Translations under genes and position numbers: made by a program | Shown: positions 16,951 through 53,905 of the stretch, piece after piece | How positions within the stretch are numbered: the first letter of the stretch is position 1 | Layout of the letters: each line of letters opens with the position of its first letter | The notes under the pieces: model-generated | Database searches by the model: none | Seen by the model: the letters and a program-made list of their open reading frames with translations, nothing else | Told to the model about the DNA's origin: nothing | IMG/VR virus record: IMGVR_UViG_2645728028_000002 | Coordinates: 1-64,000 of that record | Origin: a virus | Lineage: Duplodnaviria; Caudoviricetes | DNA: 64,000 nt | Reading direction: 5' to 3' (one strand)

Positions 16951-18091
16951 CAATCTGTTACTTTCACCCATAAGGTTACTGACCACTAGAAGCAGTGGCG
17001 GAGGAGGTGCTTCTTTAGCAAGTCTGATTACTTGCGACCTCCTCTCTGCACTTTAAAAAACCAAGGGAATATTTGTGCAGTTCAGACTATATCATCATCC
17101 TCGACTTAACGTTAGGATGTCTTGCGTGTAGTCGTTGCGGGGAATATTTCATTCATCATACTATCAATATCGTTATAAATATCAGTTTCCCAAATCTCAT
17201 AATATTTATATCCATATTTAATAAAATCTTTTTTCTTCATTTTATCTTTTTTTATTCTACTAATTTGCTCTTCATTGAGGAGTTTTTTACCATCACCATA
17301 AATTTCAGGATTTCCATGCCAATAATCACCCATTACCTCTATAATTATATTATTTGTTGGAATGAAAAAGTCTGCGAAATATTTCTGGAAGAATCCTTGT
17401 TCTTGAATGAACTCTATATTTCTATCTTCAAGCCAATTCCTAACTAATTTTTCAGGTAATGTTTCTCCTCCTTCTCTTTGGCGGTTTCTGGATTTAGTAT
17501 TCCCTATAAACCAAGCCTTTGAAAATTCAGGATTATGTAGAGTATGCTCAATCCAATATTTATTTTTACATTCCTTTGTGCAGAACTTCCTTGTTCTGAC
17601 AGTAGATGGTTTTTCGCAGCGAAAGTCTTGTTGGCAGTATAAGCATAATTTAACTCTATTACCACCTGTATAACGATTCGCCTTTTCTCCCACTAGATTT
17701 ATAGATTGCCATTTATCATGACATGATTTAGAACATACTACACTTGTTTCTGCACGTGCAGGAATAACCTCATACACTTTATCACATACCTGACAATTCT
17801 TTTTAACTTTATTTACTCTTTCTTTGCCATTGTACTTTCCAAGACAAGTTAAGGAGCAAAAAGCAATCCCTCTGGTAATTTTTTGAGTTTGGGACTTATT
17901 TTTTAGTATTTGCTTATTACATGTTCCGCAGTTAAAAATACATTTGTATTTGCTTCTTGTCACTAGAATCACCTCATTAATTCATAGTGATGAATGAAAT
18001 ATTCTTCCCACAGGATTACCTCTCCCCAGAGGCTTCCCCTGTTATAGCAAGATGTTCCCTAATTAGTTTCCTAATTAGACGGCAATTATTT
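16951..18091 (-). ncRNA. Group I intron (1141 nt) in the tape measure gene, with endonuclease ORF in P6
   Basis: 5' site GGU|AAAUAAUUGCCG gives P1 with U.G wobble; core GCAACGACUA and GAUAUAGUC; terminal G before AAU GGU; removal restores ...ESGNIIG-NGLKT... Confidence 0.92.
17112..17972 (-). CDS. Intron-encoded homing endonuclease (Zn-finger repeats plus Vsr-like/EDxHD nuclease)
   Basis: Three CxxC...CSxxC/CTxxC repeats; C-terminal T.PE...ADFFI...IIIEVMGDYWH; ORF end overlaps the intron core. Confidence 0.85.
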   Translation of the reverse strand: MILVTRSKYKCIFNCGTCNKQILKNKSQTQKITRGIAFCSLTCLGKYNGKERVNKVKKNCQVCDKVYEVIPARAETSVVCSKSCHDKWQSINLVGEKANRYTGGNRVKLCLYCQQDFRCEKPSTVRTRKFCTKECKNKYWIEHTLHNPEFSKAWFIGNTKSRNRQREGGETLPEKLVRNWLEDRNIEFIQEQGFFQKYFADFFIPTNNIIIEVMGDYWHGNPEIYGDGKKLLNEEQISRIKKDKMKKKDFIKYGYKYYEIWETDIYNDIDSMMNEIFPATTTRKTS

Positions 18092-39682: not shown

Positions 39683-42205
39683 TCACGCTGAATACGATCT
39701 TTCTCTCTGTTTTTGCTTCCTCATTCTTGCATTTTCTCTGTCTTTAATTTTCTGACATGAGGCGCACCTTGTTTTGTTTTTGGTTTTTCTGAATTTGCTT
39801 TCACAGTTTTCACAGCTTAATGAGTCATTTATATTTTCTTTAAGGTTCCGCGTTATTACTTCACCGAAGCAATCCCACAGAGTATCTTTATTTTTGCTAT
39901 CTTTAATATTATAAAGATATTCAACTAGCACATCAGTTATATAGGTTTCATCTGGATTAATCTTTAAAAGTTCTTTTTTAATAATTTCATATATGTAAAG
40001 CTTACTTTTTTTCTTTGTGTCATTATATTTTCCAATTAGAATTTTCTTCTTTTTTTCAAATTCCATGTATTTCGAGATAATAGAGTCGTCTATCTTCACT
40101 TTTTTAGAATTCATTAGCATTTTGTAGTCAAAGGTTCCAGCAACTTGTTTAAAATGGATTCTCTTATTAGGTATTATATACTCAAGCCTATTAACTACAC
40201 TATTGTTAACCTCTTCTACTTGCTTTTTTTCCTTATCTTTAGCGTATATGAAAAAGTGTGGCAATTTTGATTTAGTATATTTTTGTATTTCCGCTTTTAC
40301 GTGCTCAGGAAATTCAGGTAGAAATAATGTCTTAGCATAATCGATCACAAAATTATTATATAATGTTAAAAAACTAATTGCCTTTAAAGAAACATTACTA
40401 CTATTCCATATTTTTGTAATGTCGTTGCTTATTATCCCAATATTAGCCTTATATGCGAGGGTTAAGCTTCTGTAGATATTTTTACTATTGATTTCCTCAG
40501 CTTCTGCTTTAGCCATCTCATAATACAAAGGAACTATACCTTTCATGTTTCTTTCTGCCGCAGTAACCAATGTTTGATCTGCTACAACTAAAGCCTTATC
40601 ACCGTCCACATCGAATTGGAGTATTTTACTAATGGTGTCATAAATACTAGTGTAAACCCCCTTTGTTATAAACCATTTACTCTTTTCCTCATCCACGGTA
40701 TTCTGTCGTATAGCATGTTCACGGTACAAGTGGGGGGAACGTAAACAGTCCAGCTTTATATTGTCGAATAAACTACAATATATTTCCTTATCCTTAAGCA
40801 GACCTTTTGGATTAGTTCTCCCTAAAAACAAGAATTCACAAAAGGCGAATAAGTCAGGAATAATAAAGGTGTATTTACCATTTATTTTGAATTTTGCCGC
40901 TTTAGCATCTCTAACCATACTCTTCTTTTTTGCTTTAATTACCTCTTTCGCATGGGCGTCATTTAAAAGTTCCGGATATATTTCTAATGATTGCTGAAAT
41001 AGATTCTTATATCTGTTATCTTCGGTTGCACCTAAAATCCTCAGCATTGTTTCTTCATCGCTACCAACTCTTATGATATCATCAATGGTTTCTTGGCTAA
41101 TTATTTGCAATTCTTCATCACTCATATCCGTCAGAGATTGAAGCATTTGATAGTTCAAATATGAGTCAAGAGATACGTCTTCTTCATTTAATCTAGCAGC
41201 TTGACAATTGAATTTAATAAATCTACTTTGATAGTCTTTCCAGTCATTATAATATTTGTGCATTTTGAATTGGGATTTAGTAAAAATTATTTCGATTTTA
41301 TCTTTTTTTATATCCCATTCCTTACCATAGATGTCTTTAACAACGTAAGATTTGTTTTCTTCTGCAAACTTATCATAAGGAAACGGGACTAATAGCCCCT
41401 TCACAAATGGCAGCCTGCACATAAAAGCTTTATCAGAAACAGACTCAAGGATCATTCCGCACCCATCAGTGTGCTCTATTGGAATGTTCATTTTCTTCCT
41501 TTCAATTTCAAATGTATCACGATCTATAAAATCGACTTCTGAGAATACATTAGTTTCTAAGTCATTTACTACAATGGCACGATTAATATCAAAATTACTC
41601 CATTCATCTGATGCACTATTAGATAAAGCAAGATAAGCTTGGTATTTATTAATGTTTATACCACCCTTGCTATTTATCTCATCGACACTAAGTCCACATG
41701 TTAAAGTGTTTTTATGTTTTTCCCAAACAGATTCCTTCAAAAACACGGATTTTTTCGTGCGTATTTGTCCAGCACTCGAAGAGAAATAAATATACTTTTC
41801 TCCATTGTAAATAAACCCATTATGTATTATATCCTCTAGAACCTCGAAGAAAAATGCTTGAACAACTATTATGTCCTTAGATAATTGATCCTGTTCGGCT
41901 CCAATTGTTCGTGTAAGAGTGGAGTCAAAAAGTGCTATAACCTTATTGTCCCTCAGACTAACATTTCTTAAAATCCTTGTTTCCTCGTTTTTATCAAATA
42001 AACTATACAATTCATCTTTTAATAAATTTATCTTAGTATTTATCTTCTTTTTATATTTCGGATAATCTTTTTTCATCTTTTTAAGATAGTTTCTGTATTT
42101 ATAATACTTTAGAAGTTTATTATGTATTTTCTGTTCCTTTTCATTGTAAAAACATGAAGTATCTACAGAGTAAATATAGATTTGACGATTTAACTTAGTT
42201 ACCAT
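39683..42205 (-). CDS. yonO: YonO-type single-subunit DNA-dependent RNA polymerase
   Basis: 840 aa; HTDGCG, RLPFVKG, LRSPH and catalytic QFDVDGD; heads the late operon as in SPbeta. Confidence 0.93.
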   Translation of the reverse strand: MVTKLNRQIYIYSVDTSCFYNEKEQKIHNKLLKYYKYRNYLKKMKKDYPKYKKKINTKINLLKDELYSLFDKNEETRILRNVSLRDNKVIALFDSTLTRTIGAEQDQLSKDIIVVQAFFFEVLEDIIHNGFIYNGEKYIYFSSSAGQIRTKKSVFLKESVWEKHKNTLTCGLSVDEINSKGGININKYQAYLALSNSASDEWSNFDINRAIVVNDLETNVFSEVDFIDRDTFEIERKKMNIPIEHTDGCGMILESVSDKAFMCRLPFVKGLLVPFPYDKFAEENKSYVVKDIYGKEWDIKKDKIEIIFTKSQFKMHKYYNDWKDYQSRFIKFNCQAARLNEEDVSLDSYLNYQMLQSLTDMSDEELQIISQETIDDIIRVGSDEETMLRILGATEDNRYKNLFQQSLEIYPELLNDAHAKEVIKAKKKSMVRDAKAAKFKINGKYTFIIPDLFAFCEFLFLGRTNPKGLLKDKEIYCSLFDNIKLDCLRSPHLYREHAIRQNTVDEEKSKWFITKGVYTSIYDTISKILQFDVDGDKALVVADQTLVTAAERNMKGIVPLYYEMAKAEAEEINSKNIYRSLTLAYKANIGIISNDITKIWNSSNVSLKAISFLTLYNNFVIDYAKTLFLPEFPEHVKAEIQKYTKSKLPHFFIYAKDKEKKQVEEVNNSVVNRLEYIIPNKRIHFKQVAGTFDYKMLMNSKKVKIDDSIISKYMEFEKKKKILIGKYNDTKKKSKLYIYEIIKKELLKINPDETYITDVLVEYLYNIKDSKNKDTLWDCFGEVITRNLKENINDSLSCENCESKFRKTKNKTRCASCQKIKDRENARMRKQKQRERSYSA

Positions 42206-43435
42206 TTAACCCCTCCTCATGATGAACTTCTCATATTCTTCTTCATCGATTGACTTAAATTTATATCCACCGTAAAACTTATCACTATCTAGCAGACTGT
42301 TAAACTGTGAAGTTGAAAACCTAGTCGTCATAGTTAATCCGCTATCCACTAACCACTCTCTTGCCTCATACTTATATTTAAAAACATTTATTAACTCATT
42401 TTTTTCATTTACAGCCGAACAGTAATGTTCAATTTTATTACTAACCGAATTGTTCCTTTTTATTTTATAACCCCATTCAGTTAGTGCTTTTTTTAAAACT
42501 TCATTAGTAACTCCTTCTATATTTATTAGTTTTACTATATTACTTATCGAAATTTTATCCTTGGTGTAATGTTTGATTATTTCATCTTTTAGATCAATGA
42601 GTTGACTAATTTTATCTTTGGTACATTTTCTAGGTTTATATGTTTTCTTTTTCCTTTTACATATTTTAGCTGATTCCTTCGGTGGCTTTTTAATTTCTTT
42701 CTTACCGAATTCTTTTAACTTATCTTTAGTCCATTTATCGTTTACTTCATAGTGATGTATCCCTTTTTTCTCGCTTTTTATGAAATCATGATTTAGAATT
42801 AATATAAGGTCATCTTCGCTCTTCTTATTTAAACACCTCTTACACATTATTTGCTTACTCCGTAATCGTTCAAAGTTATTTCCACAAATGCAGCAAAGTT
42901 TCCTGCGTAACTTCAAGTGACTTAGCGGACGAAAGATTAATTTTTCATGTGGATTATTAAACTTATGTTTTTTAGAGAAACTTTTACTAATAGTTAAAGC
43001 CGTATATCCTGACCAGATAGAAGCATCGGCAATTGATTTAAAGACAAAGTTATTGTCTATACATATAACTGGCACAGAATTTCTTTTGGATAAAGAATCC
43101 TGCACATTTCCACCTTCAATCATATTATAAAAATCCTCATTATTAACTGCATCATAGAAACTTATCCAATATTCCTCTTTTTCATTTAACTCAACTTCAG
43201 AAGATGATAGGTCAATAATTCTCCTCCTGAAATTCTCTTTTCCATACTTTTTTATTGCATTATTTAAATGGTGTCCGCTACCTAAGTATGATTTCCATCT
43301 TGATCCATTGTCAATTTTTTTCTGACCTATGTATTTCTTATTATTTATCATGTTAGTTGTAATATAAATAAAGCCATATGCACCATTAAAATCTTCAATA
43401 CAATTGTAGTTCGTTTCTTCTAAGAATGTTGCCAT
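42206..43435 (-). CDS. Free-standing GIY-YIG (Seg-like) homing endonuclease
   Basis: GFIYITTNMINNKKYIGQK...YLGSG...FYN; NUMOD1-like VICIDNNFVFKSIADAS. Confidence 0.85.
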   Translation of the reverse strand: MATFLEETNYNCIEDFNGAYGFIYITTNMINNKKYIGQKKIDNGSRWKSYLGSGHHLNNAIKKYGKENFRRRIIDLSSSEVELNEKEEYWISFYDAVNNEDFYNMIEGGNVQDSLSKRNSVPVICIDNNFVFKSIADASIWSGYTALTISKSFSKKHKFNNPHEKLIFRPLSHLKLRRKLCCICGNNFERLRSKQIMCKRCLNKKSEDDLILILNHDFIKSEKKGIHHYEVNDKWTKDKLKEFGKKEIKKPPKESAKICKRKKKTYKPRKCTKDKISQLIDLKDEIIKHYTKDKISISNIVKLINIEGVTNEVLKKALTEWGYKIKRNNSVSNKIEHYCSAVNEKNELINVFKYKYEAREWLVDSGLTMTTRFSTSQFNSLLDSDKFYGGYKFKSIDEEEYEKFIMRRG

Positions 43436-43800: not shown

Positions 43801-43882
43801 TGTCATACATAGATATGACTATGGTAATAAAACCTCAGTAAAATATCTTGTCTGTCTACAACTGTATGACAACTGCATGACA
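43801..43882. repeat. TGTCATAC/GTATGACA repeat cluster upstream of parM (operator/centromere candidate)
   Basis: TGTCATAC 43801, ATATGAC 43813, TGTCTAC 43853, GTATGACA 43864, GCATGACA 43875. Confidence 0.55.
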
Positions 43883-43906
43883 CCAGTAATAAGAGGAGGG
43901 AATTGC

Positions 43907-44740
43907 GTGAAGCTTGGAGTCGATTCTGGAAATTATCGTGTGAAAATTTGTTCTGAGGACGGACTAATGGACTTTCATTCAGCAATAGGGGAGGGGAGGG
44001 AGTTAAAACTTCAGCAAGTTCATGGGGAAGATGATATGTGGTTTGAGTATGAGAGCGAGTATGGATTTGCTGGATCACTTGCGCTTTATGAATCAGAGTT
44101 TGGAGGAAGTATACTTGGTGACAATAAAGCCCACAGAGACACACTACTCAGAGTTCTTATTGGTATCAACAGATATTGTCAAAGGTATCAAATAGAAGAA
44201 ACCGTATTTGACATAGTTATTGGTCAGCCTATCTCAAGCCACACTATAGAAGCAAAAGAAAAATTAAAGAAGATGATAAAAGGTCAGCATACAATTTCAG
44301 TGAATGGGATTGAAAAGACTTTTAGTATTAATAAGTGTGAGGTAGCTGCAGAAGGAGTTTCTTCTTATTGGAGTGGTAATAGACCAGAGGGCTTAATAAG
44401 AATCTTAGATATTGGTTCAGGAACAGTAAATTTCTCAACTGTTCTAAATGGAAAGTTTATAGATAAGGACTCAGGTACATTACCTTTCGGTGTCAATACA
44501 AATAAATCAAATAACCTTAACGCCCTATGTAGGGGAATAGTAACTCACACATCAAAGAAATGGAATTCCAGCGATAAGGTATTTATTGTTGGAGGTATTG
44601 CAGAAACCATCCTTCCACTTCTAAAAGAATACTTCCCACAAGCTGAAATACTTTATCCAATATTTAATCAGCAATATGTATCCCCAATTTATGCAAATGC
44701 AATTGCATTCCATATGATTGCGGTGAACATCTATGAGTAG
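43907..44740 (+). CDS. parM: ParM/StbA-family actin-like ATPase
   Basis: Phosphate-1 GVDSGN, AEG, phosphate-2 ILDIGSGT, adenosine VGG, terminal ANA; GTG start with GAGGAGG RBS. Confidence 0.88.
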   Translation: MKLGVDSGNYRVKICSEDGLMDFHSAIGEGRELKLQQVHGEDDMWFEYESEYGFAGSLALYESEFGGSILGDNKAHRDTLLRVLIGINRYCQRYQIEETVFDIVIGQPISSHTIEAKEKLKKMIKGQHTISVNGIEKTFSINKCEVAAEGVSSYWSGNRPEGLIRILDIGSGTVNFSTVLNGKFIDKDSGTLPFGVNTNKSNNLNALCRGIVTHTSKKWNSSDKVFIVGGIAETILPLLKEYFPQAEILYPIFNQQYVSPIYANAIAFHMIAVNIYE

Positions 44741-44960
44741 AAAAGTTAAGTCCGTTTCTTTCAACTTAAATGACCCTTGGGAATTGGAGATATATGAATA
44801 CACATTAAAGTATCCCAACTTTTCGTCCTTTGTTAAGAGGCTGATTCAGAGTTCAGTCGGTGGAGTTGCACCTCAGAAGACAAGTGCTAATACGCCATCT
44901 AATCATAACTCAATTATACAACCAGAAGTAAACAAAGACTATATGAGACAACTAATCTAA
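44733..44960 (+). CDS. Ribbon-helix-helix-like adaptor (ParR-like)
   Basis: KVKSVSF beta-strand, NFSSFVKRLI helix, flexible tail; overlaps the parM stop. Confidence 0.7.
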   Translation: MSRKVKSVSFNLNDPWELEIYEYTLKYPNFSSFVKRLIQSSVGGVAPQKTSANTPSNHNSIIQPEVNKDYMRQLI

Positions 44961-44983
44961 ATTATATTTCTATATCATTTTAT

Positions 44984-45124
44984 TATTACCCGATTCTTAC
45001 CCGTTCGTTACCACATGATTGTCTAAATCGTTACCCAGATGATTACCCGACTGATTTTACGCCTTGGGTAATTACCCGATTCAATGGGTAAGCAAGAAAT
45101 GGATGGTTTGATATTTGGGTAACG
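44984..45124. repeat. TTACCC/GGGTAA short-repeat array
   Basis: TTACCC at 44986, 44997, 45031, 45043, 45072 (variants 45008, 45057); GGGTAA at 45066, 45086, 45117; palindrome GGGTAATTACCC. Confidence 0.8.
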
Positions 45125-45165
45125 AAACAAAATTTAATTTTACTAAAAAAGTGAGTTGAGATTAC

Positions 45166-45735
45166 GTGTATAAAATTACATCTAGATATCTGCAGCAAGA
45201 ATCTTTCCGTTCTTCTCCACATAAAGGAATAGATTTTAAAATGGAAATTGGTGAGCCGATTCGATCAATTAAATCTGGTCAAATTCATCTTGCTGATTAT
45301 GGCAATACGAATGCAGGGAAAACGGTTTTTGTAGAGTGGGAAGATGGAAGAACTGCAATATATGGTCATTTGAATGAGTTTGCGGTAAAAGAAGGTCAAC
45401 ATGTAAATGCGGGAGATTTAATTGGATATGCAGGAAATACAGGCTTTTCAACTGGCAGTCATCTTCATTTTTCAGTAAAAGAAGGATCTAAACATATAGA
45501 CCCTTCTCCATATATGAACGATATCCAGCATATGAATGATCCGTCTTATTTTGCGCAAGTATCTTCAGATGTCAAAGTTTCATTCTTTGATTATTTTCAG
45601 CAGCATATGGACTTAATTGGAACTCAACTAACTGACCTTAAAGTAAACTTTGTTCACTTTCTAGCCTTATCTGATTACTCTCCAATCATAAAGTTGCTGC
45701 AAAATGTCATACAATTTATCTTTTTCAATATTTAA
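45166..45735 (+). CDS. M23 (LytM) metallopeptidase with hydrophobic C-terminus
   Basis: HKGID, YGH and GFSTGSHLHF motifs; no N-terminal signal peptide. Confidence 0.88.
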   Translation: MYKITSRYLQQESFRSSPHKGIDFKMEIGEPIRSIKSGQIHLADYGNTNAGKTVFVEWEDGRTAIYGHLNEFAVKEGQHVNAGDLIGYAGNTGFSTGSHLHFSVKEGSKHIDPSPYMNDIQHMNDPSYFAQVSSDVKVSFFDYFQQHMDLIGTQLTDLKVNFVHFLALSDYSPIIKLLQNVIQFIFFNI

Positions 45736-45813
45736 ACGGTCAAAGTCAACCTTTGTTAATTTATCAAATTCAACTTGCCAAGCTAGTCTATCATCAGTTG
45801 TCCATCCAAACAT
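45667..45813 (-). CDS. Small hypothetical protein (48 aa, not in ORF track)
   Basis: GAGGTG RBS; MFGWTTDDRLAWQVEFDKLTKVDFDRLNIEKDKLYDILQQLYDWRVIR; convergent overlap with the M23 gene. Confidence 0.5.
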   Translation of the reverse strand: MFGWTTDDRLAWQVEFDKLTKVDFDRLNIEKDKLYDILQQLYDWRVIR

Positions 45814-45818
45814 TATGC

Positions 45819-45911
45819 TCACCTCTTAGGATTTCTGTTGTCATTTGCACTTTCAATTATTTCATCATAAAGTTCATCTGCTTCATCTTTTTTTGTAACG
45901 TATATGAGCAT
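45819..45911 (-). CDS. Small hypothetical peptide (30 aa, not in ORF track)
   Basis: AGGAGG RBS; MLIYVTKKDEADELYDEIIESANDNRNPKR. Confidence 0.4.
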   Translation of the reverse strand: MLIYVTKKDEADELYDEIIESANDNRNPKR

Positions 45912-45970
45912 TTGTAGTCCTCCTGTGAGTTATTTACTCATATCATTTACTAAAGGGGTGATTTGTATAC

Positions 45971-46393
45971 ATGGAAAAACATAACGAAGTTGTCATTTAC
46001 CTAAAAGACAGTGTTATCACTGATATAACTAATTATATCGAGTATCAGAAGTTAAAAAAACTGAATTTCGATGGAAACTACAATCATACAAACATGGAAG
46101 AATTTATTGTTGGTTGCGTTTGTCATTATCTAAGACAACTAAAGTATCAGATTGATCTTTCTGGTATTAATGACCTTGGCAAACCTTACCGACTTAAAAA
46201 CCGATTTAAGGAGTATATGGATAAACATGGAATAATACCTGCAGACTTAGCGAAGCAGACAGGGATTGGAGCTTCCAATATTAGTTTGATATTAAAAAAT
46301 AAAAATCAGCCAAGTCTTGATTACTTCCTTCGCATATGGATGGCTTTAAAATGCCCACCCTTAGATAAGATTCTCTATCGTGAAGAGGAATAA
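45971..46393 (+). CDS. XRE-family HTH regulator
   Basis: C-terminal LKNRFKEYM...ADLAKQTGIGASNISLILKNKNQPSL. Confidence 0.85.
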   Translation: MEKHNEVVIYLKDSVITDITNYIEYQKLKKLNFDGNYNHTNMEEFIVGCVCHYLRQLKYQIDLSGINDLGKPYRLKNRFKEYMDKHGIIPADLAKQTGIGASNISLILKNKNQPSLDYFLRIWMALKCPPLDKILYREEE

Positions 46394-46487
46394 AAAGAAA
46401 AGTTTTTAAAACTGCATAGGACAATTTTCAACGAGAATATCATCTGAATACAATACAACATACACAACAAACAAGGAGGAATACAGC

Positions 46488-46670
46488 ATGGGAACAACGT
46501 TGATTGTAGTGTCTGCTTTGAAGATTGCTGGAGCATGTGGGGTGGGGTTAGGTGCTTCTGCATTAATGAAAGCTTTTCATGAGTATGAGTTCAATTTTAA
46601 AAAGAAAGGTGATAAAAATGACAACAATATCGGTAAATCTCTGCGTGAAAGAGCCGAAGGATTACGTTAA
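46488..46670 (+). CDS. Small membrane protein
   Basis: AGGAGG RBS; hydrophobic Gly/Ala-rich N-terminus, basic tail. Confidence 0.6.
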   Translation: MGTTLIVVSALKIAGACGVGLGASALMKAFHEYEFNFKKKGDKNDNNIGKSLRERAEGLR

Positions 46671-47136
46671 TTATCACCTTTCTTCTTTTAAGGTGAATGA
46701 AAATTTTCCGAATCAAATTGTAAGGGAGGTGATGAATCTTTCTCAAAAAGAAAAGAGGAAATTTGGGAAGGTAGTAAAGGTATTTGTTGCAACAACAATA
46801 AGTTTTCTGAAATTGTCATCCGTATCAATGGCAAATGCATTGAACAATACTCAATCTCAAACAGTAATTACATCAGGAATCCCCACAGACCTGCTCGAAC
46901 CAATAATGGAATTAATCAAACTGGCTTTAGGAGGATCATTACTGCTTTCAGTAATACTTTTAATAGCAGCAGGAACAATGAGACAGTTCAGGAAGAAGAA
47001 GGAAGCAAGCGAATGGACGACAGATATAATCAAGGGTTTTCTGCAAGTTCTAATCGCAACGCCTTTAATATTTCTTCTATATTACGTAGTTACTTTACTC
47101 CTCGGAAACTTCACTCAATTTCTAAAGCCATTCTAA
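46618..47136 (+). CDS. Pilin-like (VirB2/TrbC-like) membrane protein
   Basis: Signal-like segment ending SMA-N, then two TM helices separated by RKKKEASEW...IKG. Confidence 0.55.
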   Translation: MTTISVNLCVKEPKDYVNYHLSSFKVNENFPNQIVREVMNLSQKEKRKFGKVVKVFVATTISFLKLSSVSMANALNNTQSQTVITSGIPTDLLEPIMELIKLALGGSLLLSVILLIAAGTMRQFRKKKEASEWTTDIIKGFLQVLIATPLIFLLYYVVTLLLGNFTQFLKPF

Positions 47137-48263
47137 TTCCAGTTACAGCAATTTCATCAACATTCTTGTTTACTAAATTAGCACATGCAGAGTCATTAAA
47201 AGATATTGTATTCCAAAAGAAAGGTGTCCTCACAAATGATTTTTCCGGTGCAGATCAAACTACATGGTTTGGAATAGGAGAAATAGTAAAAAATATGTTA
47301 GCAGCAATAGAATGGTTAAAAGATATTAAACAACATATTTATGACTTTTCAATTGATATATTTTCATTTGTTTTTGAAATGCTAATGCTAGTTGGATTAC
47401 AGACGCCCAGTTTTTTATTCAACAATAGTTACACAGTCAATACCACCATGACATTCTCAATGATTTCAATAAGCATTGTCATTTTACTTACAATTTATGA
47501 ATCTATTATGCAAATGTTAAATAAAGTATCTAAGCAAAGATATACTAAGTTTTCTGATATTATTAAACGTTTTCCTATTGCAGTAGGAATAACTGGATTT
47601 ACGCCATTTTTATTTCAACAAGGTTTTCGATTAATAAATAAACTAACAAGAGGGATTACTAGTCTAGGTGGGAATTTATTTAAAGAAAACAATTTAAACC
47701 AAGTCATTTCATTGAGTGGTATTGATGTATTGGGAATGATTCTGTTTGATGTTGTGGCATTGGGATTGCTTATTCCTATTTTGCTACAGGGAGGGCGCAG
47801 GTGGTTCGATCTATTTGCATTGTGTACGGCTGCCCCTTTAGCGCTTACAGCATGGATATTTGACCGCCACAGACATTTACATGCTCAATGGTGGAGTAAT
47901 GTCAAAAGACTTTCTATTATTCAACTGGTAATAGCAACTTTCATTGTACTGATGGGTATTTTCTTATATGGAGCAAGATTTATATCAGCAGAAATGTGGG
48001 CTTATAAAGTCTTGGTGATCCTCGGAGCACTTTTCCGCATCGCAAATCCTCCAAATTTTGTTAAGTCTTATACAAGAGGAGAAGAAGATGTTGTTGGAAT
48101 GTTCGACACTTATAAGAAAACATTTGCAGGAGTATACAATACAATTTCATTAAATAATTTCAAACCACTCAATTTTTATAGGAGTCAAAAAGCAGTGAAC
48201 ATCCAAAGAACAGCTTTAAGAGCAAAGCATGGTAAAAGATTCGTAGATAATTTATTAAAGTAG
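47013..48263 (+). CDS. Polytopic membrane protein, VirB6/TrbL-like
   Basis: About 6-7 TM segments; RWFDLFALCTAAPLALTAW...QWW motif; start codon uncertain. Confidence 0.6.
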   Translation: MDDRYNQGFSASSNRNAFNISSILRSYFTPRKLHSISKAILIPVTAISSTFLFTKLAHAESLKDIVFQKKGVLTNDFSGADQTTWFGIGEIVKNMLAAIEWLKDIKQHIYDFSIDIFSFVFEMLMLVGLQTPSFLFNNSYTVNTTMTFSMISISIVILLTIYESIMQMLNKVSKQRYTKFSDIIKRFPIAVGITGFTPFLFQQGFRLINKLTRGITSLGGNLFKENNLNQVISLSGIDVLGMILFDVVALGLLIPILLQGGRRWFDLFALCTAAPLALTAWIFDRHRHLHAQWWSNVKRLSIIQLVIATFIVLMGIFLYGARFISAEMWAYKVLVILGALFRIANPPNFVKSYTRGEEDVVGMFDTYKKTFAGVYNTISLNNFKPLNFYRSQKAVNIQRTALRAKHGKRFVDNLLK

Positions 48264-48271
48264 GTGAAGGA

Positions 48272-50518
48272 ATGTCGTTCAGCAGGATTATAAATAAGAC
48301 TCCTTTAAAAAATGAAAAGTCGAATGTTTACTATGTGGATGAAATCAATTCTAAGGTGATTAACGAAGTCATACAGTCGAGATTTATCTCAGAAGGGGTT
48401 TACACTTTAGAACAATTATCTCTATCAGAATACAGCGAAAGATATGTCATATCACCTTCTTTTGATAAACTTCCACTAACAAAATCTGAAAAAGATTGGC
48501 AGTTTGATTATAAGGAGGTGACTGCCTATGAGTTAGAATTATCTAAGCCTTTCTTTCATCCATTAGATACTAAACAAGTTGTTAATCTATTCGAGTTTAT
48601 ATCTAACTTAAAAAATATAACCGTATTAACTCAGGCATTAATATGCAAAAGATGTGATAACTGGCGTGAAATAGCAATCTCAATGTATGAGGATTTCTTA
48701 AAAGGAAATAGCACAGTATCAGAAATCAAATTAATTAGAAATATCCAAGCTAAAACATTGAGCGTGTTGAATAAAATCAGCAATTATGCTATTCAAAAAG
48801 ATCCAATTGAGGAAGTTGAAAATAAAATACTGCAGAACGCATACAGGTTTGAGTGCAGATTTTTATTGCCAGAAGAAAAGCATAGCAATTACTTTGAGAA
48901 AGAGTTGAACAAACAGTTAGATAAAATTGGATTATTTAATGAATTAGTTTTAAGAAAGGTGAACAATAAGAAGCAATTTGTCAAATTTATTGAATATAGA
49001 GAATTTCAGACAGAACTGGTAAATCAATTATTGAGTGAAAGTGAGATATTCAGTTTACTATGCGATACACAAACTAACCCTGTAGCTATAAATGCAAATC
49101 TCAAGCAATCTAAACCAACAAGTATCATTAAAACAATCCAAAAAAATCATTATCTTAATTCAGCCATATCCTTAATGCCAACAAAGCAAAGAGAGGAGGA
49201 GAATGTAAATTCAGAAACACTTGATCAGTTACAGTTTGCTTTTAAGCGTGTAAAGATTACGGATAAGAAATTAAAGATATTAGATGTGTTTCAGGGAACA
49301 ACTTTAATTAAGGTGCAAATGACCATTCCCCAAGATGTGAACTATTCCAGTATTCAAAAAAACCTAAAGAACATTCAGGCTGCATTAGGCAATGAGAATA
49401 TTAGCTTGGAAATTGGGGATAAACCAGACACAATTAACTTTTATCTTCCTAGAGAGAAACGAGATATTTTGTGGCTTAGGAATATTTTAGAGTCAGAGCA
49501 ATTCCAAAAGCATTGTGAGAATGTGGAATTACCATTCATTATTGGTGAGAATACGCATGGGGAATTGTTGTTAGGTTGTCTTGCTGATTTGAAACATATA
49601 TTAGTAGCTGGTGCAACAGGATCAGGAAAAAGCGTATTCCTAAATATATTGTTGATTTGCTTATTAACGTCAGTGCCTCCTGAATTATTAAATATTGTAT
49701 TAGTTGATCCTAAACAAGTTGAATTTACTCAATATGAAGGTTTTCCACAGGTAAGTAAGATTGTTACAAATCCGAATAAAGCAGTTGAGTTAGTTCATTC
49801 TTTATGCGAAGAAATGGAAAAGCGATATAAAATATTGGCAGAGGCAAAGGTGAAGAATATTATCCAATACAATAATAAAAATGAAACTAAGATGCCCTAT
49901 GTAATTTGCATTATAGATGAGTATGCTGACTTGATGATGACAAATAACGAAGTGGAGAATTATGTAGTTAGGCTGAGTCAGAAAGCGAGAGCTGCAGGAA
50001 TTCACTTGGTATTAGCAACACAGAAACCACTGAGCACAATTGTAACCAGTGTATTGAAAGGAAACTTACCCTCAGCAATTAGTTTCAGGTTGAAAACTTC
50101 ATCTGACTATACAACAGTATTTGGTAAGGGGATTCCTTACACATTATTAGGAAAAGGAGATGGGGTGTGTAAGCTAGAAGGGCAACAAAGAGAATATGAA
50201 CGTTTCCAAACTCCTGTAATGACATTAGATGAAAATGAAGAAGAGGAAATTTATGAAAAGCTGAAGGATATGTTTAAAGATGCTCCTGTAATGGATTTTG
50301 AAATTATCAAGGAGGAAAGTCAGATTGATCAATTGAAGAGAATCATTGCTACTCATAATGAAGCCAGAATATCCGAGCTGCAAAAACTAATGGGTATAAG
50401 AATCAATGCCGTATCTGATTTAGTGAAAGAACTGGTTGAAGAAGGCTGGCTTGAGAAACAGGGGAAGCGATATGAAATTGTAGCAGGTGAAGATGAGTTA
50501 TCCAAGTGGAGAGAGTGA
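48272..50518 (+). CDS. FtsK/SpoIIIE-family DNA translocase with C-terminal winged helix
   Basis: HILVAGATGSGKS, VDPK, EMEKRY, IIDEYAD, RAAGIHLVLATQKP, LLGKGDG; C-terminal ARISELQKLMGIRIN...LVEEGWL. Confidence 0.92.
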   Translation: MSFSRIINKTPLKNEKSNVYYVDEINSKVINEVIQSRFISEGVYTLEQLSLSEYSERYVISPSFDKLPLTKSEKDWQFDYKEVTAYELELSKPFFHPLDTKQVVNLFEFISNLKNITVLTQALICKRCDNWREIAISMYEDFLKGNSTVSEIKLIRNIQAKTLSVLNKISNYAIQKDPIEEVENKILQNAYRFECRFLLPEEKHSNYFEKELNKQLDKIGLFNELVLRKVNNKKQFVKFIEYREFQTELVNQLLSESEIFSLLCDTQTNPVAINANLKQSKPTSIIKTIQKNHYLNSAISLMPTKQREEENVNSETLDQLQFAFKRVKITDKKLKILDVFQGTTLIKVQMTIPQDVNYSSIQKNLKNIQAALGNENISLEIGDKPDTINFYLPREKRDILWLRNILESEQFQKHCENVELPFIIGENTHGELLLGCLADLKHILVAGATGSGKSVFLNILLICLLTSVPPELLNIVLVDPKQVEFTQYEGFPQVSKIVTNPNKAVELVHSLCEEMEKRYKILAEAKVKNIIQYNNKNETKMPYVICIIDEYADLMMTNNEVENYVVRLSQKARAAGIHLVLATQKPLSTIVTSVLKGNLPSAISFRLKTSSDYTTVFGKGIPYTLLGKGDGVCKLEGQQREYERFQTPVMTLDENEEEEIYEKLKDMFKDAPVMDFEIIKEESQIDQLKRIIATHNEARISELQKLMGIRINAVSDLVKELVEEGWLEKQGKRYEIVAGEDELSKWRE

Positions 50519-50937: not shown

Positions 50938-53121
50938 ATGGAAGAAATTATTGAATTGAAAATTGTCCCTGTCAGAGAGTTTTTCCACAACAATGATTAT
51001 GGTATTTATGTTTGCGAAACTGATGAGCCGAATAAAGTAATGCTTAATAAATTCCATAATAATTTTTCAATGAAGGGCAATACATTCAAGTTAAAGTTAG
51101 ATAAAGAATATAATGCAAAATTGGTTGAGCGTGAGGATAAAAAATACGGCACATATTATGAAATTGTATCTATCTTTGAGAATATGCCAACAGGCAAGGA
51201 TCAGCAAAGAGGATATTTGTTAAGTGTCCTAACTGAGAAACAGGTTAATGCTATTTATAAAGCATATCCAGACGAGGATATTATTGAACTATTCAAGACA
51301 GACAAGTTTGATGTGAACAGGGTAAAAGGAATTGGAGAAAAATCTTATGTGAAGGTTAGGGATAAGATTATTGAAAACTTGGAGTTTCAGCAAGCTTTTG
51401 AATTCCTCAGTCAATATGGAGTTACGAATAACCTGATTATCAAACTGGTAAAACATTTTAAATCTGCAGGATTGTTAATAAAAAAGATGAAAGAGAATCC
51501 TTATTCGATTACTGATATATCGGGAATTGGATATAAAAAAGCTGACACTATAGCAATGAGCATGGGTTACGATCCAAGTGGTGAATTCAGAATTGACGCT
51601 GCTATCGAATATGTAGTTGAAGAAGAAAGCAATAAAGGTAACACTTATGTAACTACAGACAAATTAGTTTTCCAAGTAGAGGACTTGATCAGTGTTGCGG
51701 AGTCATTAATAAATAATCAAATAAAAAATACTTCTAATCTAATTGTATCAGGTGATAGAGTTGCATTAAAGAAAAATTACGATGCGGAAAAGTTTATCTC
51801 TAAGAAATTGAAATCAATTTTAAAAAACAGCTCTTCTCTTAATTTTGATGTTGAGAAATTCATCTTAGATCAAGAAGAGAAAAGAGGTATAAAATTAACA
51901 GACCAGCAAAAATCGTTTTTCTATAATATTAAGGATCATAATGTTAACTTACTTGTTGGTTACGCTGGAACTGGTAAAAGCCAATTAACTGCCTTACTTA
52001 TTGACTTATTAGAGCAATTGAAAATTGGTTATAAGCTCACAAGTCCAACCGGAAAAGCAGCTAAGGTAGTTAGCAATTATACAAATAGAACGGCTGAAAC
52101 CCTTCACAGAGCAATAGGCTTAGGGCGTGAAGGAAGAGAAGATGAAATTAAGTATATTGAAGAAGAATTTGTAATTGTTGATGAAACATCAATGGTTGAT
52201 GTCCAATTGTGCTCAAAACTATTAAAAAAATGTAATAATGAAAATTTAAGAATTTTGTTTATTGGGGATGATTTTCAAATCGCTTCAATTGGGGCAGGCA
52301 GGTTACTATATGATCTGATACAAAGCAACAGGATTCCAACTACCAAAATTGATATCGTTTTCCGTCAAAAAGAAAATAGCATACTCGATATAGCAACAAA
52401 AATCAGACAAGGTAAGAAGTTTCTTAATAATAGTGATGAAGGAATATTTAAGTTTAGTGAAAATTGCATAGTAGCAAGTGTGCCACAAGATAAAATGGAG
52501 GGCGGATATAAGTACTATCTTAAAGAGATGCTAAATTCTTTCTCCAGTGATGAGATTACTATTACTACCCCTACTAAAAAGTCAAAGTTGGGTACAGTTG
52601 AAATAAATAAGCATACTCAGGAATCTGTAAATCCGAATGATGGATCTAAGATAGAAAAACAATTTGGATATGATGGTGTTGTGTTTAGAGAAGGAGACTT
52701 GGTTATTAATGCAAAGAATACCTATAGAATACAAGATATTCACTCAAATGAAATTGATATAGTTAACGGTGATGTTGGAAAAATAATAAAGATTGATCTA
52801 GAAGAAGAGGAAATATGGGTTGATTTTGATTTTGCTACAATCCCATTTGACTACGCCATGTTAGGGCAATTGCTTCATTGTTGGTCTATGACGATACACA
52901 AAATGCAGGGATCTTCTAATAAAGCCATCTGTGTAATTGCGGATAAGGCGCATAAATTTCAATTAAATGCAAACCTACTTTACACTGCTGTCACAAGAAG
53001 CGTTGATTATCTTGTAATATTAAGTCAAGCATCCACTATCAATTTCGCATTAAAGAAGATTGCTAGTTTACAAAGAGATACATTTTTAGGTGAATTTTTA
53101 AGGGAGGATGGAGATGCCTAA
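50938..53121 (+). CDS. recD2: RecD2-like SF1B helicase
   Basis: HhH VKGIG, GYAGTGKS, SPTGKAA, VDETSM, GDDFQ, FRQ, TIHKMQG, LYTAVTR. Confidence 0.9.
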   Translation: MEEIIELKIVPVREFFHNNDYGIYVCETDEPNKVMLNKFHNNFSMKGNTFKLKLDKEYNAKLVEREDKKYGTYYEIVSIFENMPTGKDQQRGYLLSVLTEKQVNAIYKAYPDEDIIELFKTDKFDVNRVKGIGEKSYVKVRDKIIENLEFQQAFEFLSQYGVTNNLIIKLVKHFKSAGLLIKKMKENPYSITDISGIGYKKADTIAMSMGYDPSGEFRIDAAIEYVVEEESNKGNTYVTTDKLVFQVEDLISVAESLINNQIKNTSNLIVSGDRVALKKNYDAEKFISKKLKSILKNSSSLNFDVEKFILDQEEKRGIKLTDQQKSFFYNIKDHNVNLLVGYAGTGKSQLTALLIDLLEQLKIGYKLTSPTGKAAKVVSNYTNRTAETLHRAIGLGREGREDEIKYIEEEFVIVDETSMVDVQLCSKLLKKCNNENLRILFIGDDFQIASIGAGRLLYDLIQSNRIPTTKIDIVFRQKENSILDIATKIRQGKKFLNNSDEGIFKFSENCIVASVPQDKMEGGYKYYLKEMLNSFSSDEITITTPTKKSKLGTVEINKHTQESVNPNDGSKIEKQFGYDGVVFREGDLVINAKNTYRIQDIHSNEIDIVNGDVGKIIKIDLEEEEIWVDFDFATIPFDYAMLGQLLHCWSMTIHKMQGSSNKAICVIADKAHKFQLNANLLYTAVTRSVDYLVILSQASTINFALKKIASLQRDTFLGEFLREDGDA

Positions 53122-53905
53122 ATTTATTGATTTGACTGGAGAAAAGTTTGGGAAACTGACGGTGAAATACAAAATTGATACTGACTCGAACCGCACGTTC
53201 TGGTTCTGTGAGTGTGATTGCGGTGGAAAGAAAGAGGCTAGGTCAGATGCATTAAGGAATGGAACAACTACTCATTGTGGATGTGTTGGTTTAGGTACAC
53301 ACAATAAAACGGGTCATAGGTTGTTTAATATTTGGCAAGGTATGAAGGATCGTTGCTACAATACAAACAGTAAAGATTACAACAGATACGGTGGTAGAGG
53401 AATTGAAGTGTGTCAAGAATGGATAGATGACTTTATGAACTTTTACAATTGGGCAATGGAGAATGGTTATAATCACTCTTTGTCTATAGACCGAGTTAAT
53501 GTCAATAGAAATTACGAACCTAACAATTGTAAATGGGCTACTCCAGAAGAACAAGCAAACAACACAAGAAAAAATAATTTAATCAAGGTAAACGGAGAGG
53601 TTAAATCAGTATCTCAATGGGCAAGAATTTCAGGTGTTTCAAGATATGTAATTAAGAAAAGGTATGCTGAAGGTGTTAGAGGTAGTGATTTGTTTCTCCC
53701 AGTTGAGGAAATAAAAGCTCAATATCAATCGGGAGTACCTTATATTAAGTGGGATAAGAAAAAGGAGAGATGGAGAACAGAAGTTAAATATAATGGGAAA
53801 AAGCATTTTGTTGGAAATATTAAAGACCTAGATGATGCAATTAATAAGCAAAATGAATTCAAAGAAAGATTAATTAAACAAAGGGAGGAGGGAGAGGTTG
53901 AATGA
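53108..53905 (+). CDS. HNH-type homing endonuclease with AP2-like C-terminus
   Basis: DLTGEKFGKL..CECDCG; YGGRGI..W; SIDRVNVNRNYEPNNCKWAT; SGVPYIKW..RWR. Confidence 0.85.
   Translation: MEMPKFIDLTGEKFGKLTVKYKIDTDSNRTFWFCECDCGGKKEARSDALRNGTTTHCGCVGLGTHNKTGHRLFNIWQGMKDRCYNTNSKDYNRYGGRGIEVCQEWIDDFMNFYNWAMENGYNHSLSIDRVNVNRNYEPNNCKWATPEEQANNTRKNNLIKVNGEVKSVSQWARISGVSRYVIKKRYAEGVRGSDLFLPVEEIKAQYQSGVPYIKWDKKKERWRTEVKYNGKKHFVGNIKDLDDAINKQNEFKERLIKQREEGEVE

Follow-up and report, generated by a model that had tools for sequence, protein, structure and literature searches.

We analyzed a 64,000-nucleotide stretch of viral DNA (positions 1 to 64,000 of IMG/VR virus record IMGVR_UViG_2645728028_000002; "the window" below means this whole stretch) and found that eight co-oriented genes on its + strand, spanning 43.8-50.5 kb and identified with Pfam and PHROG, form a module built around a putative DNA pump of unusual make-up. 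Computation shows that its FtsK/SpoIIIE-type ATPase is a chimera, in which a VirB4-N-terminal-like domain is joined to an FtsK alpha/beta motor for double-stranded DNA (dsDNA) and to a winged helix, and the identification of its membrane partners as parts of secretion systems is supported for the VirB6/TrbL-like protein and probable for the VirB2/TrbC-like one. The genes for these three core proteins are inseparable across the 61 loci that we compared, which come from yonO-type prophages, Spbetavirus Goe14, lytic Bastillevirinae, Bacillus cereus megaplasmids and a plasmid of the same genome. We give an even chance to the reading that the module is a sequence-targeted dsDNA translocon, docked on a membrane complex derived from a type IV secretion system (T4SS), with a filament feeding it. 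Its parts in the window, with protein lengths in amino acids (aa), are:

43801..43882, no strand: upstream repeat set of four GTATGAC-like units, direct and inverted, surrounding the actin-gene promoter; candidate parC/operator
43877..44740, + strand: actin-like (ParM/Alp) ATPase; Pfam ALP_N E=1.7e-17, 64.5 bits against a threshold of 26.3
44733..44960, + strand: 75-aa adaptor candidate (ParR-like); phrog_8966 E=4e-13, a phage family of unknown function
44984..45124, no strand: array of nine TTACC(C/G) units, five forward and then mixed inverted; candidate recognition/loading (clt-like) site
45166..45735, + strand: M23 peptidoglycan endopeptidase; PF01551 E=4.5e-29 over the full profile, phrog_7767 E=2e-57
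45971..46393, + strand: XRE-family helix-turn-helix (HTH) regulator; HTH_26/HTH_3, conserved N-terminal domain
46488..46670, + strand: DUF7394 single-pass membrane protein, 60 aa; PF24126 E=2.6e-8, phrog_3796, one N-terminal membrane helix
46579..47136, + strand: TrbC/VirB2-like pilin-type protein, open reading frame of 185 aa; phrog_3528 E=8e-29
47013..48263, + strand: TrbL/VirB6-like polytopic protein, 416 aa, ~6 membrane helices; phrog_3750 E=2e-71
48272-50518, + strand: FtsK/SpoIIIE ATPase, 748 aa; PF01580 E=1.7e-42, 145.8 bits against a threshold of 24
48272..49072, + strand: N-terminal domain of the ATPase, residues 1-267; VirB4-N-terminal-like/DUF8128-like fold, presumed docking domain
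49169..50221, + strand: FtsK alpha+beta dsDNA motor, residues ~300-650; Walker A GATGSGKS, Walker B IIDE
50321..50479, + strand: C-terminal winged helix (gamma-like), helix 3 starting IRIN; MarR/IclR HTH Pfam matches at residues 690-730

An earlier note, made by reading the sequence alone, had listed here a ParM-like actin, a ribbon-helix-helix (RHH)-like adaptor, two repeat arrays, an intact M23 peptidase, an XRE regulator, a small transmembrane protein, a pilin-like protein, a VirB6-like polytopic protein and an FtsK/SpoIIIE ATPase with a C-terminal winged helix. Each listed gene is present and all lie on the + strand, with four GTATGAC-like units upstream and nine TTACC units downstream of the actin and adaptor genes; the profile matches above bear out the actin, the regulator, the small membrane protein and the ATPase, and the remaining identifications are taken up below.

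The ATPase has no membrane segment, as no hydrophobic stretch occurs outside its ATPase core. When residues 1-274 were folded alone with AlphaFold2, the mean confidence (pLDDT, predicted local distance difference test) was 90.7 and residues 15-265 formed a soluble alpha/beta domain. Compared by VIA-align with 48,161 solved chains, this domain matched TrwK/VirB4 of R388 best (7o42_A, Z 12.3, root-mean-square deviation (rmsd) 3.2 over 210 residues), followed by an ESX component (Z 9.4) and by remaining matches near 6. The top eight Foldseek rows were likewise all TrwK/VirB4 chains, with weak E-values, and in the ESM Atlas the domain reached TM 0.70-0.73 to DUF8128 domains, which are N-terminal in T4SS coupling-type ATPases; Pfam gave no match on residues 1-300. 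In solved T4SS structures the N-terminal part of VirB4 sits on the inner-membrane complex. The motor, by comparison, is plainly of the FtsK type: phmmer against Escherichia coli FtsK (2ius) gave E=8e-51, Foldseek against DNA-bound FtsK (6t8o) gave E=1.8e-32 with TMt 0.86 and rmsd 2.5-2.9, and the range over 6t8o and 2ius was TMt 0.82-0.87 and rmsd 2.4-3.3 over ~390-400 columns, whereas the conjugative coupling protein TcpA reached a clearly poorer TMt of only 0.66. The motif residues G447, G452, K453, S454, D549 and E550 were invariant or nearly so in the ATPase alignment. The winged helix appears in the model as helices within residues 684-723 plus a hairpin, with the MarR/IclR matches listed above and no match to the Pfam family Ftsk_gamma. 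Whatever its function, this chimeric ATPase is of evolutionary interest, as it links secretion ATPases and chromosome pumps.

Identification of the membrane partners drew on homologues as well as on the window's own proteins. The TrbL-like protein itself scored 20.3 bits with TrbL_4, under the threshold of 27; its homologues at 59-73% identity carry TrbL_4/TrbL_3 (PF19597/PF19590), and in the ESM Atlas it matched TrbL/VirB6 clusters with features at 0.93 and structure at TM 0.5-0.7. The pilin-like protein had no Pfam match and an ESM Atlas lead to T4SS_pilin (0.89), and its paralog on C20, a 108-kb plasmid-like contig of the same genome, is 34% identical to it and scores 35.7 bits with PF04956 TrbC against a gathering threshold of 27.9. 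The VirB6-like identity given in the earlier note is thus borne out, and the pilin-like one is probable. The pilin-like gene probably starts at ATG 46732 (134 aa), after the strong ribosome-binding site AAGGGAGG, and the 134-aa protein carries a signal peptide and two membrane helices. A VirB3-like role for the DUF7394 protein is speculative. The M23 peptidase keeps all of its catalytic residues (H19/D23, H68, H99/H101), as its description as intact implied, has a hydrophobic C-terminal extension, and is encoded in about half of the 61 loci. A second M23 domain lies in the phage's tape-measure protein and is ~31% identical to the stand-alone enzyme, C-terminal extension included. The XRE gene is found in prophage and plasmid versions of the module and is absent from lytic-phage versions, a pattern that suggests separately regulated expression in the temperate and plasmid versions.

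The genes for the two membrane partners overlap in an unusual manner. In every one of the 61 loci the TrbL-like protein is read in the -1 frame relative to the TrbC-like gene, and this frame is open through almost the entire TrbC-like gene (397-487 nucleotides; 46701-47136 in the window), with no stops over the last 130 codons of that gene in 55 of 55 unique loci. As controls, about 20 stops occur in the +1 frame of the TrbC-like stretch and 11-15, with a minimum of 4, in the -1 frame of coding regions nearby. The open frame points to one of two arrangements, either long dual coding like that of Rz/Rz1 or a -1 frameshift that would fuse the TrbC-like and TrbL-like proteins; natural pilin-TrbL fusion proteins exist. 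A slippery GGGTTTT is located at 47034, and such sites are not universal among the loci.

The TrbC/VirB2-like, TrbL/VirB6-like and FtsK-type ATPase genes occur in identical order and on the same strand in all 61 loci, a clustering far beyond chance. The earlier note had made its grouping of the genes depend on co-occurrence and synteny across Bacillaceae phages and plasmids, and this is what the survey found. Among phage records, near-full-length matches numbered 159 for the ATPase and 136 for the TrbL-like protein, and the two genes were adjacent in every phage record found in both match lists. With few exceptions the phage carriers are Herelleviridae of Bacillus from the strictly lytic Bastillevirinae; phiNIT1, CAM003 and Spbetavirus Goe14 share the window's order from actin through ATPase, each gene in Goe14 being annotated 'hypothetical'. 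TrbL-like homologues were found in 13 plasmids and full-length ATPase homologues in exactly those 13, namely megaplasmids of the B. cereus group (188-491 kb, typed 'non-mobilizable'), one plasmid from Niallia and one wrongly labelled 'Arthrobacter'. As the module is carried by strictly lytic Bastillevirinae and by megaplasmids, its function must serve large replicating elements generally. Two host labels look doubtful: the 'Arthrobacter citreus NEB 577' plasmid CP053689 carries the core module together with a small acid-soluble spore protein gene, and in 'Xanthomonas phage Xoo-sp15' (MN364664) the module is of the Bacillus Bastille type, with 37% identity. Every host that is named belongs to the endospore-forming Bacillaceae; 160 of the 162 TrbL-like protein records belong to Bacillus phages, and phages of non-sporulating Firmicutes are without the protein. 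This host range fits spore entrapment, though limited gene flow may alone explain it. For Grass, Bc431v3 and the Bastille-like group, published work has commented on FtsK/SpoIIIE and on ParM, each by itself (PMC3853049, PMC3601020, PMC4528723). The module is not mentioned in a paper on SPbeta relatives, and a full-text literature search returned no paper connecting TrbL and FtsK in Bacillus phages.

C20 carries a second copy of the XRE, small-protein, TrbC-like, TrbL-like and ATPase genes (L007:8256-12777) and, ~30 kb from it, a complete canonical Gram-positive T4SS (L006:4791-14539) composed of a coupling protein, a TcpC/VirB8-like protein, VirB4, a 675-aa protein and a CwlT-like hydrolase. 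The earlier note had allowed that secretion genes elsewhere in the genome might complete the module into a standard T4SS. We rejected this possibility, because the C20 T4SS is self-sufficient and stands beside a module copy of its own; the module therefore coexists with a T4SS and does not complete one. The same note had reported no relaxase and no VirB4 in the window. Searches found no relaxase of PF03432 or PF02486 in the whole genome, other relaxase families not having been searched, and no VirB4 (PF12846) in the window, so that the claim stands for these families and is to be qualified for VirB4, to whose N-terminal part the ATPase N-terminal domain is alike in fold. Homology with pXO16 was also considered and set aside, as no pXO16-type record was among the 13 plasmid matches.

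The TTACC array is the candidate site at which the pump would recognize DNA. Within 44986-45122 there are eight exact TTACCC copies; the remainder of the 64 kb has 19, which is what chance predicts, and these have no strand polarity. Arrays of 5-10 units with a similar orientation pattern occupy the same site in most loci. The TTACC class accompanies three unrelated adaptor types, actin, tubulin or no filament at all, and XRE-less loci; on C20, three TTACC copies lie upstream of the XRE gene, with no filament genes and no adaptor. Among DNA-binding proteins, the winged helix alone is shared by all TTACC-class loci, and the array is therefore better assigned to the translocase winged helix than to the actin adaptor, as a clt-like candidate. 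Where the array motif differs between loci, the start of helix 3 in the winged helix differs as well (helix-3 start, array motif):

I[RK][IM]N: TTACC
IKAE: AATTCC
[ML]GNN, IGI[NG]: TTACT[CG]A, CGTTAC
IK[GT]T: GGAAAC
IKQN: AATACC
VKT[AT]: ATTTCC

With the winged helix left out of the tree, five phylogenetically independent contrasts were available, of which four agreed with covariation, none was opposite and one (L033) showed no change. Three other roles for the array were tried and rejected. As a KOPS/SRS-like polar motif it would not be expected at chance level and unpolarized elsewhere; as the centromere of the actin adaptor it would not be kept with TubR/TubZ or with no filament, nor would the adaptor strand stay constant as the motif changes; and as an XRE operator it would not occur in lytic-phage loci without XRE.

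Upstream of the array, the pump is accompanied by different filament systems. This slot is filled across the loci as follows:

window-type actin with the 75-aa adaptor: 8 loci
Bastille-type actin with its own adaptor: about 36 loci
small winged-helix protein with a tubulin/TubZ-like GTPase (PF00091, 41-74 bits): 10 loci
actin gene on the opposite strand: 4 loci
nothing adjacent (plasmids and two viral contigs): 5 loci

In the ten TubR/TubZ sister loci (L008:6498-7939, L012:6758-8157 and eight more, with PF00091 above threshold) the tubulin pair takes the slot of actin and adaptor, and the TTACC array and the pump are unchanged. That tubulin substitutes for actin in the same position suggests that a cytomotive filament of either type works with the pump, and the repeated exchange of actin and tubulin beside one pump is a clean case of non-orthologous replacement.

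In the window the filament protein also matches phrog_691 'partition protein' (E=5e-46), and its gene probably begins at GTG 43907, directly after the ribosome-binding site AGGAGGG. The overlapping 75-aa gene encodes a basic N-terminal strand and a C-terminal LxQLI tail, both conserved in the alignment. The small adaptor of the earlier note is thus present as a candidate; the RHH fold ascribed to it was inferred only, and a search of its profile against solved structures gave no RHH match. GTATGAC units were also found upstream of the actin gene in L009, L013, L014 and L020, and L011 has a variant upstream unit and a variant adaptor N-terminal strand together. The strand RKVKSVSF is identical between loci whose downstream motifs differ. 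Because the strand stays constant despite the change of downstream motif and goes with the GTATGAC units, we assign the upstream repeats to the small adaptor as a putative parC-like site. At a second chromosomal locus of the same genome (C19:4122771-4123916), an adaptor homologue (47% identity over 40 aa) lies beside an M23 peptidase (33%), without a pump; this locus is possibly another prophage.

The window phage is an SPbeta-like siphophage with a tape-measure protein, a portal, a terminase and a YonO-like RNA polymerase. It is embedded in a chromosome contig of 5.54 Mb. The genome to which this contig belongs (5.67 Mb, 100% complete) encodes Spo0A, and the phage is therefore a prophage integrated in a spore-forming member of the Bacillaceae. 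Hence the episomal prophage that the earlier note had the module position is not its resting state. The module lies where that note had placed it, between yonO and the recD2 block, and the features around it are:

11149-16986, - strand: tape-measure protein containing the M23 domain; phrog_7767 E=1.7e-29
39683-42205, - strand: yonO-like gene, phrog_8308; left flank of the module
42206-43435, - strand: GIY-YIG homing endonuclease; left flank, between yonO and the module
50938-53121, + strand: RecD-like helicase; right flank
53108-53905, + strand: HNH endonuclease, after the RecD-like helicase

In phiNIT1 an HNH endonuclease is inserted between the actin cassette and the M23 gene, and the region around the module seems to attract homing endonucleases (GIY-YIG and HNH). 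A megablast of the region against phages gave no match, its relatives being detectable at the protein level only, and a scan for sigma-70 promoters and terminators gave signal no higher than in shuffled sequence.

Together, these data suggest two coupled devices. The first would be a ParMRC-type cassette of promoter GTATGAC repeats, actin-like filament protein and small adaptor, in which the adaptor's conserved N-terminal strand may read the repeats and its conserved tail may hold the filament. The second would be a T4SS-derived dsDNA translocon, comprising the M23 enzyme, the XRE regulator, the single-pass protein, the VirB2/TrbC-like and VirB6/TrbL-like proteins and the soluble chimeric ATPase. 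By analogy with the recognition of clt by Streptomyces TraB, the winged helix would recognize the TTACC array at the operon's head, and the motor would for this reason load solely on the element's own DNA. The N-terminal domain would dock the hexamer onto the membrane proteins, in the same way as the N-terminus of VirB4 in a T4SS. A filament, made of actin here and of tubulin in sister loci, would carry DNA to the membrane site, the M23 enzyme would open the cell wall, and dsDNA would be pumped over the barrier of membrane and wall, most likely at a septum (toward the forespore or a sister cell) and less likely into a neighbouring cell. The destination, forespore or neighbour, is something that we purely infer. 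That large Bacillus phages, both lytic Bastillevirinae and temperate ones of the SPbeta-like kind, and megaplasmids pump their own dsDNA genomes over a septum or envelope without virions, using the filament as a track, is a conceivable but doubtful extension of the translocon reading.

Several observations weigh against the reading of the module as a targeted translocon. The likeness of the ATPase to the VirB4 N-terminus is structural only, as hhalign against the genome's own VirB4 gave no signal, and no VirB8-like protein, full VirB4 or VirD4 is among the module proteins. The covariation between array and winged helix is suggestive and not significant (sign test p=0.125), and L033 (IMG/VR UViG 2974555129) breaks the rule, with seven GGTAAT units of the TTACC class and a helix 3 starting VKQD. 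The module is a sporadic, mobile trait, its ATPase N-terminal domain occurring in only 8 of 268 other species genomes of the host family. Furthermore, there is no evident reason for a strictly lytic phage to export DNA, and to our knowledge it is unsolved, for TraB too, how dsDNA that is circular or concatemeric could pass a hexamer. Finally, the papers that remarked on single genes of this group call their function unknown or vaguely sporulation-linked (PMC3853049, PMC3601020, PMC4528723).

Among other explanations, we considered that the ATPase might act wholly inside the cell, tethered to membrane or septum, to clear, decatenate or segregate filament-positioned DNA in the manner of SftA or FtsK, with nothing leaving the compartment. 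The motor is nearest to chromosomal FtsK, the ATPase is soluble like SftA and in constant association with partition filaments, every carrier is a large replicon (>120 kb), and an integrated prophage implies that the module acts after induction, all of which would suit such a role. A tether, however, needs no VirB2-like pilin, no VirB6-like channel and no wall hydrolase (present in half of the loci), the motif forms one local array and is not polar genome-wide like KOPS or SRS, and the N-terminal domain belongs to the type found in T4SS ATPases; we therefore regard intracellular handling as unlikely. A conflict system, whose membrane complex and motor exclude or expel rival phage or conjugative DNA or manipulate host DNA, appears less probable still: the PHROG category of the ATPase is 'moron / host takeover', the module adjoins early and anti-defence-like genes, and it is sporadic and mobile among elements, yet an exclusion device would carry neither a self-specific array co-varying with the winged helix nor a coupling to the element's own partition filament.

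Two further explanations have, in our judgement, very little probability. Carrier genomes of 125-165 kb could favour an early-expressed motor that, in a second step of transfer, draws in what remains outside of a very long genome, but non-phage megaplasmids and the plasmid C20 have the same core, and genome entry needs neither a pilin-like protein nor a partition filament. Equally remote is a role in protein export, in which the FtsK-like ATPase would drive proteins through the TrbL-like channel in the way of EssC of type VII secretion. The ATPase is matched by EssC/EccC families at E=1e-27 to 1e-31, and the ESX component was the second structural match of its N-terminal domain; on the other side stand a complete alpha+beta dsDNA motor like that of DNA-bound FtsK in a single ATPase domain, and a DNA-binding winged helix with a cognate DNA array.

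If the module moves phage or plasmid dsDNA through septa or envelopes, it would offer phages a way to spread, or to be inherited in spores, without virions, and would be a Firmicute counterpart of Streptomyces TraB transfer; delivery into the forespore would explain the entrapment of phages in spores, and 'non-mobilizable' megaplasmids and lytic phages would be viewed differently. What is new here is the chimeric ATPase, a TTACC-class array that appears to track the winged helix and GTATGAC repeats that appear to be paired with the adaptor. Since laboratory B. subtilis is a host of Goe14, phiNIT1, Grass and SBSphiJ, the module is open to direct tests.

With regard to known systems, partition cassettes of type II (ParMRC, Alp7ARC) share with the module an actin-like ATPase and resemble it in the candidate small adaptor and the repeats of its promoter region, and type III (TubZRC) corresponds to the tubulin-type replacement in the sister loci. 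They differ in that the module's filament cassette is constantly joined to a membrane DNA-pump operon and in that some of its carriers are strictly lytic phages, for which there is no plasmid state to keep up. Partition genes are reportedly also carried by the phage CGP3, as AlpAC. Another phage example is TubZ of Clostridium phage c-st (PMC7824862).

SpoIIIE, SftA and FtsK have the same alpha+beta motor fold and sequence and a gamma-like winged helix, and SftA in particular resembles the module ATPase, which is soluble and without an N-terminal membrane anchor. The module ATPase has a different N-terminus, a proposed single local array instead of dispersed polar motifs, and is encoded by mobile elements alongside T4SS-type membrane proteins. 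Minimal Gram-positive T4SS such as ICEBs1 Con and pCW3 Tcp likewise combine a VirB6-like protein, small membrane proteins, a wall hydrolase and an ATPase of the FtsK/VirD4 superfamily in one operon. However, they keep a separate VirB4 and mostly a VirB8-like protein, whereas the module has only a VirB4-N-terminal-like domain fused to its FtsK motor; its hydrolase is of the M23 type and not lysozyme-like or NlpC; and TcpA of pCW3 is the poorer structural match to its motor, as given above. The tra genes of pELF (PMC13492992) and the tip locus of pXO16 (PMC9673590) have no recognized relaxase and retain VirB4. Sets of a DUF8128-ATPase, TrbL_3 and T4SS_pilin from Saccharimonadota, other members of the candidate phyla radiation and Bacillota (ESM Atlas) contain the same three building blocks by fold and features. 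Their likeness to the module is structural only, and their own ATPase domains are of the VirD4/TraG/HerA type rather than an FtsK alpha/beta motor with a winged helix.

By analogy, the closest working counterpart of the module is the TraB-clt system of Streptomyces. There, TraB/clt/TraR/Spd of pSVH1 and pIJ101 move dsDNA through septal cross-walls during intramycelial spreading; the TraB C-terminus reads 8-bp clt repeats, a repressor and polytopic, pore-forming Spd partners take part, and SpdB2 homologues have been reported on actinophages (PMC4447253). In both systems there is one hexameric dsDNA motor, FtsK-like and ending in a winged helix, and beside its gene lies a short array of ~8-bp repeats, which in the module is only putatively cis-acting. 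Both also have a repressor of their own, membrane partners that are polytopic and of the pore type, and proteins that interact with the wall, and neither has a recognized relaxase. The module ATPase is, however, not an orthologue of TraB (NF041214 plasmid_TraB, 59.5 bits against a cut-off of 800), and its motor carries the VirB4-N-terminal-like domain in place of a membrane domain. Furthermore, its partners are of the VirB6/VirB2 type and not Spd, it is coupled to actin or tubulin filaments, and its hosts are Bacillaceae and its carriers mostly phages.

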